Positions 4,214-19,469 are shown, counted from the first letter of the stretch. The stretch is 22,216 nt of DNA from a virus (IMGVR_UViG_2681813161_000004), one strand, 5' to 3'. The notes: generated by a model not told the origin, from the sequence alone. Made by a program: numbers and translations.

Positions 4214-4894
4214 TACTCAACGTCAAACGCCCGAATTGAAGCCAAATCATCCAGACCGCTCAGCTCCTCTTTCATTTCACGCTGACGGCGATAAATCTCA
4301 TCGTTGCGATCGACCTGCGCCTGCACCATTGCTGCCGCCAGTTCTTCCAGTTCCGGCATCGACAGTTTCACCTGCTGATTATCCGCATCGCTCCACACCA
4401 TATGTGTTTGTGCCGCGACAGATTTTGCCAGCATGACTACCGGGGACAGGCGGCCCAGTGAGTCGGGACCAGCATTCCAGATACGACCGTTCCATTCAAA
4501 CGTGAACGGCTTCGCCTCCTGTTCTGCGCGCCATGCTTCAATTTCCTGACGTCTGGCCTCTCTGGCCGCTTCCAGCATTTCTGGTGTCACAGTGAATGGG
4601 GCTATCTCACCCCATTTGCCGCTTTGCAGTTCCTGCCAGATTTGCTGACCCGTCGGAGCGACATCATCAGCGGTGGCTGTGTAGGGGAGTACTGGGCACT
4701 GAAATCCCCACCGGTCCCAGTCGTGAGCCTCTGTATGACTGCCCCCTGACAAGTCTGATGACTTTATCACCGTCAGCTTCTCCCTGGTACGCAGCAATAA
4801 TCAGCCCGCCAATGTCAGGGGCTCCCCATCTGTTGCGGACAGAGCTCGCCACGATTCTGTAAATAATATCTTCTGTGGTTATATTTATTTTCAC
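4213..4894 (-). pseudogene. Phage tail-fibre-associated protein (possible tail fibre chaperone), apparently frameshifted near a five-C run (plus 4743-4747); GTG start overlapping the stf stop
   Basis: Protein-like frame A from 4894 (GTG) ...KINITTEDIIYRIVASSVRNRWGAPDIGGLIIAAYQGEADGDKVI switches to protein-like frame B ...SHTEAHDWDRWGFQCPVLPY...EAKPFTFEWNGRIWNAGPDSL...-stop at 4213; each frame is junk on the other side of the G-run. Family assignment by position only. Confidence 0.4.
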
Positions 4895-5952
4895 CCAGTC
4901 AGTCTGGATATGGGCCAGTAGCAGTAGCGGGGGTGATAAATGGGGCCGTTAATGCCGTAAAAAGTAAGGGATTTGGCTCTGTACCGCGGTTCTGTTGTCT
5001 CAGGGCGTGCATCAGTCCACCGGATGCTGAGCACCCCTTCAAACCGTGTGTCGGGTATGATGATGTCGTAGGGGCCAGCAACGGAATATTCACCTGGCAG
5101 CGCATTCCTTACCCAGGCCAGGAAATCACTCTTAGTGTCAAAACGGATAACATCTTCAGGCAGAAAAGCACACCCAAAGCCGAATGCGCCAGGTATCGCC
5201 AGACGGCCTTTTGTCCGGTCGTAAATGTCGCTCTGTGCTTCCATCGTGGCCGCACTTTTCAGCCCCAGATTATCCCGGGACTTCTGTTGTGCCTTTTCGC
5301 CTGCTGCTGCGATTTCTGACAGATGGTTAGCCATTTTCAGAGTGCCGGTCAGCGCAGCATCAATGTCATTTTTGGCCTGTTCTGCTGCGCGGGCATAACC
5401 TGCGGCATCCTGTGCGCTCTGTCCGGCTGCGGCTGCATTTGCTCCTGTGCTTGTCACATCTTCCGCAGTGGCCTTTCTGTCCTCAGCTGTGACGGTTGCA
5501 TCCTGTCTGGCATTCTCCGCAAAACGTTGTGCATCATCACGGGCCGTTGCGGCTGCCGCCACATCCTGCGCCGTCTGCTGTGCGTTTCCGGCTGCGGCCC
5601 CGGCGCTCTGCTGCGCCTGCACCACCATTTCCTCAAAGCGCTTCATCACCTCCGGACGTAAATCACCATCCTTTGGTGCATTCAGAAACGCGTTCAGTGT
5701 CCCCGGTGCATCAGTCGGTGCCACATCAATATCCCCGACACGGGTTGGCTGCCAGCCGTTACAGTGAAGCGCAACCTCGTAATACCCCGGCTCAGCCTCA
5801 ATCACATAAGCACCGTTATTGTCCGTCACGCAAGTGGCAACAACGTGTGCCACAACGGTCGGACTGGTTCTTCTGGCCCGCAGTTCAATCGCACAATTTA
5901 CGACAGGTTTACCCGCCCCATCTTTCAGTACACCTGAAATCTTTACTGCCAT
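4891..5952 (-). CDS. stf: Side tail fibre protein (lambda Stf-like N-terminus, Ala/Gln-rich middle, divergent C-terminal domain)
   Basis: Starts MAVKISGVLKDGAGKPVVNCAIELRARRTSPTVV..., close to the lambda Stf N-terminus (MAVKISGVLKDG...) from recall; RBS GGGGTGA upstream. The ORF-track extension to 5994 runs through the lom terminator hairpin and is rejected. Confidence 0.8.
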   Translation of the reverse strand: MAVKISGVLKDGAGKPVVNCAIELRARRTSPTVVAHVVATCVTDNNGAYVIEAEPGYYEVALHCNGWQPTRVGDIDVAPTDAPGTLNAFLNAPKDGDLRPEVMKRFEEMVVQAQQSAGAAAGNAQQTAQDVAAAATARDDAQRFAENARQDATVTAEDRKATAEDVTSTGANAAAAGQSAQDAAGYARAAEQAKNDIDAALTGTLKMANHLSEIAAAGEKAQQKSRDNLGLKSAATMEAQSDIYDRTKGRLAIPGAFGFGCAFLPEDVIRFDTKSDFLAWVRNALPGEYSVAGPYDIIIPDTRFEGVLSIRWTDARPETTEPRYRAKSLTFYGINGPIYHPRYCYWPISRLTG

Positions 5953-5963
5953 ATTCACCCCAC

Positions 5964-5989
5964 AAAAAGCCCGCCTGAACCAGCGGGCT
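5964..5989 (-). terminator. Rho-independent terminator downstream of lom
   Basis: Plus-strand aaaaa + agcccgc ctgaacca gcgggct: 7-bp perfect stem, 8-nt loop, T5 on the - strand immediately after the hairpin; sits between the lom stop (6016) and the stf start (5952). Confidence 0.7.
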
Positions 5990-6015
5990 GTCATAACACT
6001 GTGTTACCTGGCTAA

Positions 6016-17598: not shown

Positions 17599-18339
17599 TT
17601 ATGGTGCGCTGACGGTCACCGCAGCCACTGCCACAAACTCTCCGTCAGAGGTCATGCCCACGATGCTGACACTGCCCTGCTTCACGCCTGTCACCGTGGC
17701 CACAAGCCCGCTCAGGGTCACCGAAGCAGTCTGAGGATCTGACGAATGCACACTGATCGCTTTGTCACTGGCCCCGTCAGGTTTTACTGTAAAGGTCAGT
17801 GTGGTGGTTGCTCCCGCTTTGACACTGACAGATGCCGGTGCCACCGTCAGTCCGGTAACACCCACGGTTTCAGCGCCCTCCTCTGCCAGATACGGACGCC
17901 CCACACCGCTGATTTTTACAGTACGGGTCATCACCTCTTTTGAGGTAATGGTTTTACCCAGTGAACTCAGCCAGCCACGGAAAACATCAACCGTACCGTT
18001 GGGGTATTTGATACGAAACGCGCAGACTTCACCGGAATCGAACAACTGAACCAGTTTTTTCTGCCCGCTGTCACCCGGACGCCAGGCCAGCGTCGCCAAA
18101 GTATCACCGACGGATTTCTGCCCCTGGGTTGTCGTTTTCCAGTCTGCATCTTCATCATCGAGATAAGTGTCATCTTCTGCATCAGCGGTCATTTCGCCAG
18201 GTTGCAGATCCTTCACCATCGCAAGACGCAGCCAGTCAGTGTCCGACAAAGGGTTCGCAAACGCATCGCCCTTGCCGGTGTACATCCAGAACGTCGTTCC
18301 CGCACCTTTCGTCTTTGCCAGTGGATTTGGTGTGGTCAT
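17599..18339 (-). CDS. V: Major tail protein V (with C-terminal Ig-like domain)
   Basis: From the ATG at 18339 (RBS AAGGAGGTG): MTTPNPLAKTKGAGTTFWMYTGKGDAFANPLSDTDWLRLAMVKDL...YLDDEDADW...NGTVDVFRGW..., matching lambda V from recall. The ORF-track upstream extension (MIMRWPPGRWRKSRTRSR...) is rejected. Confidence 0.93.
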   Translation of the reverse strand: MTTPNPLAKTKGAGTTFWMYTGKGDAFANPLSDTDWLRLAMVKDLQPGEMTADAEDDTYLDDEDADWKTTTQGQKSVGDTLATLAWRPGDSGQKKLVQLFDSGEVCAFRIKYPNGTVDVFRGWLSSLGKTITSKEVMTRTVKISGVGRPYLAEEGAETVGVTGLTVAPASVSVKAGATTTLTFTVKPDGASDKAISVHSSDPQTASVTLSGLVATVTGVKQGSVSIVGMTSDGEFVAVAAVTVSAP

Positions 18340-18349
18340 TGCCACCTCC

Positions 18350-18751
18350 TTAATTCGTGTACGTGATCTGGTACGTGATTTCCGCCATCGCCCAGGTGGC
18401 CATCTCATTATCACGTTGATAGTTAAAACCGAGTGGGATCATGGTGTCGATGAGTCCGGAAAGCACCGGAATATCCTTCATGGCCGGAAATATGGTGTTC
18501 TCCATCCACGTATCCAGCTCAGAATCCGGCGCCTGTGCACGGACGAAAACGGCAATATGCAGAACAGCCTGCCAGTCGTCCTCATCCGTCATTTTTCCGG
18601 TGTACTGCGCATCACTCAGCCACACCGCCACGGCGGGCAGTTCCTGCGCATCAATAAATGCCGGAAGCCCGTCAAAAAGCACGACATTCCCCCCGCATTC
18701 GCCCTTCAGGCTTGCCAGTACTGCCTGGCGGATTTGTGTGTGCCTGTTCAT
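18350..18751 (-). CDS. U: Tail terminator protein U
   Basis: 133-aa ORF ...FDGLPAFIDAQELPAVAVWLSDAQYTG...PDSELDTWMEN...ITYQITY, matching lambda U from recall; start overlaps the Z stop (ATGA). Confidence 0.9.
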   Translation of the reverse strand: MNRHTQIRQAVLASLKGECGGNVVLFDGLPAFIDAQELPAVAVWLSDAQYTGKMTDEDDWQAVLHIAVFVRAQAPDSELDTWMENTIFPAMKDIPVLSGLIDTMIPLGFNYQRDNEMATWAMAEITYQITYTN

Positions 18752-19335
18752 CCCAAATGTATCCTCAGTTGCTGTTTCAGGGCATACCCCAGCTGTTTCG
18801 GCATTTCCGCGGCAATGATGCGGTCGCGGGCATCCTCAAATGCCTGTGTCAGCGGTCCGGCCAGCGGAATTTTCACAACCTCCACGGGCAGACGATTTTT
18901 TCTGGGCCGCCCCTTACTGTCCTTTCCTGTTTCAAAACACGCTTCAGGAAGACGCCTGAGAACATGCCAGCGACCGTTCGCCAGCTGCTGGATAAACGCA
19001 CCACGAAAAAAGTATTTCCCCACCTTCAGTCCGTCACCGGCACGCCGGCATGTTGTGCCAAGCTTAATGGCGGGCAGATTGCCCCGGTTAACACGGATAC
19101 GGGCATACATTTTTCCTGCCGGACTGGCTTTAAATACCCGGACGCGCTGACGCACCAGTTTCAGGGGGCCCCCCTTCACCTGGTTATCTCCCGCAACGGT
19201 ATTCCTGGCGACCTGCCGGGTGGCAACCGAGACAACTTTTGCAGCAACCCGGTTTACTGCCCATGCGCTGGCCTGCGGCACCATACGGGTATCAAGACTG
19301 TTCAGATTGCGGATGGCATTCTCAAGCCCCCTCAT
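18748..19335 (-). CDS. Z: Tail completion protein Z
   Basis: 195-aa ORF MRGLENAIRNLNSL...AVNRVAAKVVSVATRQVAR...GAFIQQLANGRWHV...VVKIP...LGYALKQQLR, matching lambda Z from recall. Confidence 0.88.
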   Translation of the reverse strand: MRGLENAIRNLNSLDTRMVPQASAWAVNRVAAKVVSVATRQVARNTVAGDNQVKGGPLKLVRQRVRVFKASPAGKMYARIRVNRGNLPAIKLGTTCRRAGDGLKVGKYFFRGAFIQQLANGRWHVLRRLPEACFETGKDSKGRPRKNRLPVEVVKIPLAGPLTQAFEDARDRIIAAEMPKQLGYALKQQLRIHLG

Positions 19336-19469
19336 AATATCCCCCTGCCCTTACGTTTCCTGCTCCTTCACGCCGCAACCGGATATAACTACATCCGCCG
19401 TCATCAGGAGTAATACGATCCACGCTGAAAGACTCCCGGCCAATCATCAGCGAATCATTGCGACACAGC
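19322..19469 (-). pseudogene. FII: 3' fragment of the FII-like head-tail joining gene, 5' part removed at the IS66-family element boundary
   Basis: - strand frame open from the IS boundary: ...AMIGRESFSVDRITPDDGGCSYIRLRREG..., compare the lambda FII C-terminus ...TLTIGEENFWVDRVSPDDGGSCHLWLGRG from recall; no start codon; frame ends 11 nt inside Z. Confidence 0.6.

Follow-up and report, generated by a model that had tools for sequence, protein, structure and literature searches.

The 22,216-nucleotide viral sequence IMGVR_UViG_2681813161_000004 (hereafter the window, meaning the whole stretch of DNA analysed) very probably carries a fixed, non-functional remnant of a lambda-like ipaH prophage of the Shigella lineage, of the type found in S. 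flexneri CDC 796-83 and S. boydii Sb227, whose frame-disrupting lesions have been inherited through ordinary decay and are not artefacts of assembly. The minus strand between approximately 4.2 and 19.5 kb represents a lambda-type tail module. The original prediction had drawn attention to five runs of five C on the plus strand of this module (G on the coding strand), which coincided with frame changes in the genes L and T and in a tail-fibre-associated gene and also lay at the FII/Z junction, and had proposed either systematic homopolymer error or slipped-strand decay of a cryptic prophage as the cause. All five runs exist, the one in the tail-fibre region being located at 4742-4746 and not at 4743-4747. 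The three to four coincidences that had been counted reduce to two of four or five, namely L and T; the matches in the fibre/tfa region and at the FII/Z junction are coincidental.

The closest annotated relative is the intact prophage of enteroinvasive Escherichia coli (EIEC) strain VL46 (locus L001, NZ_CM177010.1, 1724318-1746814), which is 98-99% identical to the window across positions 1966-18900 and in which all head and tail genes are annotated as complete. This prophage served as the reference for the ancestral state at each site, and the window was aligned to it with all insertions and deletions listed. In addition, 20 loci with lesion-type sequences, belonging to 19 distinct assemblies (L004 and L019 are one genome), were fetched and their alleles were read directly.

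L changes frame at the flagged run, exactly as had been claimed. Alignment to VL46 gave CTCCCCCTG in the window and CTCCCCTG in the intact allele, a difference of one additional C, which on the coding strand corresponds to CAGGGGGAG and CAGGGGAG, respectively. Removal of this C yields an L protein of 232 amino acids (aa) that is identical to VL46 L at 231 of 232 positions. The insertion is base-identical in 11 other assemblies (L003-L012 and L014), and the shortened L of 66 aa has exact matches on 64 contigs from NCBI assemblies and Logan re-assemblies of raw runs. The L lesion is a true inherited expansion of a G4 run to G5.

The frame of T also breaks right at its flagged run, but a neighbouring base was lost and the length of an existing run did not change. 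The plus-strand allele is CGCCCCCTC in the window versus CGCCCCACTC in the intact state (on the coding strand, GAGTGGGGC became GAGGGGGC), so that the codons GAG-TGG-GGC turned into GAG-GGG-GC and the five-base run is itself a product of the deletion. When one base is put back, a T protein of 109 aa is obtained, all 109 residues of which are identical to VL46 T. The same deletion occurs in 18 other assemblies, comprising the 11 with the L insertion together with L013, L015-L018, L020 and L022. Exact matches to the 73-aa T fragment were found on 478 contigs (NCBI and Logan re-assemblies), and a scan of IMG/VR for the lesion returned three contigs; the 51-aa N-terminal fragment had no exact match in the protein collection. 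Exact-protein look-ups placed the same shortened proteins in Shigella flexneri CDC 796-83, S. flexneri CCH060 and S. boydii Sb227.

The possibility that the C5 runs were mis-called and that the tail genes are really intact draws on the position of both single-base frameshifts at five-base runs, on two one-base contractions that are private to the window (Table 1) and on the condition of several related assemblies that are clearly affected by such errors. Dozens of single-base deletions are present in CFSAN029787 (L002, CP011416.1), and L005 and L017 (CP026823.1) also contain many at homopolymers, departing from the other relatives at 7 of 255 and 12 of 123 runs, respectively. Systematic homopolymer error is nevertheless an extremely unlikely explanation for L and T, whose alleles recur base for base in 11 and 18 other assemblies and whose exact products recur on the 64 and 478 contigs mentioned above. 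A homopolymer audit of runs of at least 4 nt across the window showed the majority length of the relatives at 275 of 277 runs; of the two exceptions, one reflects a comparison dominated by error-prone assemblies and the other is the private G-run change at 4091. Thus, at L and T the run length is not private to one assembly, and the window does not show many affected runs. Moreover, the base lost from T is not a run base, and the runs at 4742-4746 and at the FII/Z junction equal the intact state. The window therefore resembles the homopolymer artefacts of long-read or 454-type assemblies, of which L002, L005 and L017 are real cases, in having single-base frameshifts at C or G runs, but differs from them in that its flagged alleles recur across independent assemblies and its other runs match the consensus. 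In CFSAN029787, the ipaHd, J, lom and fibre genes are annotated as frameshifted, probably as a result of homopolymer deletions.

The lesion-bearing assemblies range from complete genomes, namely that of S. boydii Sb227 (CP000036) and several more, to numerous drafts. They represent independent isolates, since their own single-nucleotide polymorphisms (SNPs), insertion sequence (IS) insertions and deletions differ from those of the window. Comparison with orthologous prophages of related genomes, which had been put forward as a way of separating the two explanations, thus recovered the same L and T lesions in independent isolates and indicates real decay. Neither lesion was present in 5,426 complete E. 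coli genomes; matches were obtained in 3,405 records for the L site and in 1,837 for the T site, and all full-length E. coli matches at the two sites carried the intact allele (one gap, 98.8%).

Different events account for the apparent frame change in the tail-fibre-associated gene, which had been attributed to its C5 run. The run at 4742-4746 is the same in the intact EIEC prophages L001 and L002 and is read in frame (R-G in ...LVRGQSYRGS...), as in the intact fibre protein. The frame switch arises nearby because a 246-bp deletion, which took out the 3' end of the fibre gene with its stop as well as the start and 5' end of the DUF4376 (tfa-like) gene, joined two genes that are naturally in different frames. 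In addition, the loss of one CAGT repeat (4 bp) shifts the fibre frame. Before this loss, a C-to-T SNP of the lineage had turned CAGCCAGTCAGT into a perfect (CAGT)3 (window 4891-4908), as seen in the closest relatives of the window. The (CAGT)2 allele was also found in three paralogous ipaH-prophage tail-fibre copies each of S. flexneri SFBU1023 and of 'E. coli' ECMA0423 (4.44 Mb; L026-L031 in all). Its presence in paralogues of other Shigella genomes identifies it as a real Shigella allele and hints that it arose again by slippage or was moved between ipaH-prophage paralogues by gene conversion. Neither the 353-aa nor the 367-aa form of the shortened fibre protein of the window had an exact match in the protein collection.

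Dropping one C at 4742-4746 would create a 597-aa fibre-tfa product that is seen in no intact relative. Because this product is a chimera, an open reading frame (ORF) that is lengthened by such a 'correction' is not evidence of an artefact. Exactly such a product is called in the error-prone L005 (PSSU01000001.1), in which a C5-to-C4 error at the equivalent position yields a spurious fibre-tfa ORF of 594 aa. Two cautions follow for annotation: an ORF switch at a run does not by itself make that run the lesion, and a long ORF obtained by correction may be a chimera.

The FII/Z junction contains no lesion, as its frame, its stop and the 14-nt overlap of the two genes are the same in the intact VL46 prophage. 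Z begins with an ATG at 19335 and is intact (195 aa). The two G5 runs (19327-19331 and 19341-19345) lie in the FII remnant, and the first of them is also present in relatives with full-length FII. It had been suggested that six G at this place would let the FII stop overlap the Z start as ATGA; in the intact relatives the two genes overlap by 14 nt, just as they do in the window, and the suggestion falls.

The association of lesions with runs was also evaluated against chance. Between positions 4100 and 19500, the plus strand contains 25 runs of at least five C and only two runs of at least five G, an excess that results from the G-rich coding strand (negative GC skew). The C5 runs other than those at L and T are ordinary strings of G-rich codons (GGG, GGN and AGG). 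The view that the lesions are unrelated to the runs gains from the finding that 23 of the 25 C runs are lesion-free, from the frequency (18%) with which a 131-nt ambiguous interval, such as that of the fibre/tfa region, holds a C5 run, and from the two matches (tfa and FII/Z) that are indeed coincidental. On the other hand, only 3.9% of module positions are within or beside a C or G run of at least four, and both true single-base changes, at L and T, fall within or beside an ancestral G4 run (joint p of approximately 0.0015). This is the signature of run-associated indel mutagenesis, so the run association is real for L and T, as expected from the known mutational bias at runs, and pure coincidence as a full account is very unlikely. 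The motif CCCCCTGA, which had been reported to enclose two of the runs, indeed occurs exactly twice (at 4742 and 13287). As a shared signal it was rejected: there are only two copies, both belong to the non-coding strand, and the one at 4742 does not mark a lesion.

Inherited decay of the remnant finds its clearest expression in the nested distribution of the lesions. The T deletion is present in all Shigella-type loci. The L insertion and the truncation of FII by an IS66-family element are shared by the window, L004-L012 and L014 (the L003 sequence has the L insertion and does not reach across the IS66 junction). A sister group, consisting of L013, L015-L018 and L020, retains an intact L (in L013 and L016 also an intact FII) and has lesions of its own, including a deletion in U and insertions of IS1 or IS4. 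The 246-bp deletion is limited to the window and L004-L007, being absent from L010, L001 and L002, and the insertion of an IS600-like element in J is limited to the window, L003, L004 and L007. At this locus, (CAGT)2 occurs in the window only. Such nesting across independent isolates implies stepwise inherited decay, and the shared lesions could be used as lineage markers.

A sequence of events may be proposed on this basis. Without selection for virion production, errors of replication and recombination would accumulate and be inherited vertically. The loss of a base beside the G4 run of T would come first, either by misincorporation followed by misalignment or by slippage at the boundary of the run. 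Insertion of the IS66-family element into FII with loss of the head genes, together with a slipped-strand expansion of G4 to G5 in L, would form the second step, followed by the 246-bp deletion between GGGA microhomologies that fused fibre and tfa, by the entry of the IS600-like element into the 3' end of J and finally by contraction of (CAGT)3 in the fibre gene, probably through slipped-strand mispairing. Streisinger slipped-strand mispairing acts at short homopolymers and short tandem repeats, and the changes from G4 to G5 in L and from (CAGT)3 to (CAGT)2 are textbook cases, each consisting of one repeat unit gained or lost in an existing run. The T lesion, in which a base beside the run was lost, and the 246-bp deletion, which is presumably microhomology-mediated, differ from this pattern. 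Of the slipped-strand decay that had been proposed for a cryptic prophage, the decay itself and the slippage in L stand; T lost a base outside its G4 run, the fibre/tfa break goes back to the 246-bp deletion and the contraction of the CAGT repeat and not to its C5 run, and the FII/Z junction is intact.

Several points weigh against the reading of the window as a vertically decaying remnant. First, the two private contractions (4091-4092 and 17576-17578) could be genuine or could be sequencing errors, for which sites of this kind are the only candidates in the window. The second of them affects a terminator-like hairpin with a T-run between V and G (17565-17578), in which the relatives have the perfect stem GCCCCGG/CCGGGGC and the window is short of one base (G4 to G3 on the plus strand); the G3 allele was not found in scans of viral and metagenome contigs. 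Second, the comparison assemblies come without a statement of their sequencing platforms; Sb227 was presumably Sanger-sequenced. Third, the order of events is deduced from a handful of loci and not from a phylogeny. Fourth, the same one-base deletion in T is carried by L022 (GCA_902502095.1, CABVWS010000008.1, 8001-8222), a prophage that is approximately 90% identical to the window and whose terminase, portal, capsid and remaining tail genes are full length. An otherwise intact-looking carrier fits recurrence or recombination over simple vertical descent, and the strong conservation of T is compatible with either. Over the 200 bp surrounding the site, L022 and the window are 100% identical. 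Given the same deletion in L022 and on 478 contigs, GAG-T-GGGG might be a recurrent deletion hotspot or the allele might have been spread by recombination; alternatively, the T deletion might have been the first lesion, the one by which an ipaH-converting lambdoid phage was immobilised in an ancestor of several Shigella lineages. These broader scenarios are considered unlikely.

The remaining explanation treats the runs as functional recoding or phase-variation sites, at which a reversible G-run or ribosomal or transcriptional slippage would switch or restore the tail genes. A site of putative programmed -1 shifting does lie nearby. In lambda, gpG and gpGT are produced through a -1 ribosomal frameshift at the heptamer GGGAAAG with approximately 4% shifting (Levin et al. 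1993, as cited in PMC3296357). In the window, frame arithmetic from the ORFs puts T in the -1 frame relative to G, directly downstream of G and its heptamer and between the tail-tube (V) and tape-measure (H) genes, in the same way as in lambda and in VL46. The heptamer GGAAAAG is identical in all 25 of 25 loci, including the intact VL46 prophage, and differs from that of lambda: only the A-site re-pairing (AAG to AAA) is perfect, and P-site re-pairing (GAA to GGA) would be imperfect, with G·U pairing required at the central position. The comparison of these sequences suggests that the G/T frame change is a conserved programmed-type shift of lambda-like tails and is separate from the lesion, the recoding site lying 100 nt upstream of 17053-17057, which is a mutation inside T.

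In principle, a -1 slip on the G5 run of T would restore the T frame, the T allele is frequent, and L022 looks otherwise intact; it may even be speculated that the new G5 run permits low-level compensating -1 slippage in T. However, every lesion-bearing assembly of good quality has G5, thousands of E. coli records have G4, no on/off polymorphism occurs within a lineage, and five bases are short for a contingency tract. A restored L or T would also be without its assembly partners, as the head genes are missing and FII, J and the fibre gene are broken. A role of the runs in recoding or phase variation is therefore exceedingly improbable.

The original prediction held that the distinction between artefact and decay decides whether the tail module is functional. 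It does not, since the module is dead regardless of run lengths: the head genes are gone, FII is reduced to about 52 codons, J is shortened, and fibre has been fused to tfa with disruption of the reading frame. The IS66-family element stands in place of the 5' part of FII and of all that lay upstream, head genes included, and is followed in the relatives by chromosomal ydfI/GGDEF genes. The IS600-like element inserted 35 nt ahead of the J stop, so that J (7980-11429, minus strand) lacks approximately its last 11 codons. With T and L frameshifted in addition, the region does not qualify as an inducible prophage, and L, T, J, FII and fibre/tfa should be annotated as pseudogenes and not be 'polished' away.

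The identity of the module as lambda-like rests on the gene order Z-U-V-G-T-H-M-L-K-I-J and on the expected families, recognised by Pfam in near-identical loci: in order, Minor_tail_Z, Phage_tail_U, Phage_TTP_12, Phage_TAC_2, Phage_tail_T, TMP_2/Tape_meas_lam_C, Phage_min_tail, Phage_tail_L, NLPC_P60, Lambda_tail_I and the GpJ domains. The RefSeq annotation of VL46 is consistent with the lambda tail gene order. The features of the window are collected in Table 1.

Table 1. Positions of lesions, genes and mobile elements in the window, counted from its first nucleotide.
Feature	Position	Strand	Details
L lesion	13287-13291	minus	+1 G in the coding-strand G4 run (C4 to C5 on the plus strand)
L fragments	13276-13476; 12777-13382	minus	66 aa (first fragment); each matches Pfam Phage_tail_L
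T lesion	17053-17057	minus	T lost from coding GAG-T-GGGGC (plus strand: A between C4 and C)
T fragments	16991-17146; 16818-17039	minus	51 aa and 73 aa; the 73-aa part matches Pfam Phage_tail_T
G/T recoding site	17155-17167	minus	heptamer GGAAAAG at 17167-17161, then G stop TGA at 17157-17155
246-bp deletion junction	4685-4688	minus	between GGGA microhomologies
CAGT repeat loss	4896-4903	minus	(CAGT)2 versus (CAGT)3 in close relatives; 4-bp frameshift, fibre gene stops at 4891
FII 3' remnant	19322-19480	minus	about 52 codons; natural stop TGA at 19324-19322
IS66-family element	19481-21986	plus	2.5 kb; ORFs of 139, 116 and 530 aa
IS3-family, IS600-like element	6724-7987	minus	1264 bp; CAA target duplication
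Private run contraction	4091-4092		G2 versus G3 in relatives; intergenic, downstream of ipaH
Private run contraction	17576-17578	minus	G3 versus G4 in all 17 comparable relatives; intergenic, V/G
Tail module gene order		minus	high to low coordinates: FII remnant, Z, U, V, G, T, H, M, L, K, I, J, lom, tail fibre, DUF4376/tfa
ipaH	2283-4034	plus	intact, 583 aa; LRR_TTSS (E=7e-16) and NEL (E=1e-76; E3 ligase)
Two IS1 copies	1-~768; 1213-1980	same orientation	InsA 91 aa, InsB 167 aa

The carriers of the identical truncated proteins are Shigella, and the contig of CDC 796-83 (L003, AERO01000018.1) is 100% identical to window positions 6724-17392; therefore, the region is a Shigella 'ipaH island', a known type of prophage remnant. 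Such islands have been described as prophage remnants in Shigella (PMC9046306), and pseudogenisation by IS elements in this genus is documented as well (PMC8072062). Prophage decay of this kind in Shigella is thus already well known. Like the chromosomal ipaH islands and cryptic lambdoid remnants of Shigella and EIEC, the window combines an intact ipaH gene, with leucine-rich repeat (LRR) and NEL domains, and neighbouring lambda-type tail-fibre and tail genes with many IS1, IS600-like and IS66-family elements and pseudogenes. There is no essential difference from these islands, and what is added here is a base-level map of the lesions shared by each lineage. The VL46 prophage itself is a candidate for a still-mobile ipaH-converting lambdoid phage or for the ancestor of the remnant.

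ipaH is the sole intact cargo of the region. Its product is full length, with the N-terminal LRR_TTSS and C-terminal NEL domains of IpaH effectors, and equals VL46 ipaHd in length. Approximately 200 bp upstream, at 2071-2087, lies the MxiE-box-like motif GTATCGTTTTTTTACAT in AT-rich surroundings (GC 0.38), which differs by one mismatch from the MxiE-box consensus, GTATCGTTTTTTTANAG. This motif suggests that the intact ipaH may still be under control linked to the type III secretion system while the surrounding phage decays. Selection on the intact gene is probably why the remnant persists. The window may be regarded as a further example of Shigella retaining an effector gene while the phage that delivered it decays.

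Some differences among close relatives were also observed. In the Shigella relatives, the remnant borders genes of the yneF/ydfI region, unlike the VL46 prophage, which adjoins aspS/yecD. The CDC 796-83 contig, around its positions 4817-6107, has an extra IS3-family insertion within G (equivalent to approximately 17392 of the window) and different DNA past IS600, which implies that decay and rearrangement are ongoing between very close strains. A scan of the window with Rfam at the gathering threshold returned no known RNA family. Four IS copies break up the region, two of them being the IS1 elements at the left end, besides the IS600-like and IS66-family elements. The two IS1 copies are 99% identical and offset by 1212 bp, with approximately 440 bp between them. 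Homology to VL46 begins only at 1966, and the DinI-like gene and chromosomal flank of the VL46 prophage are missing from the window.

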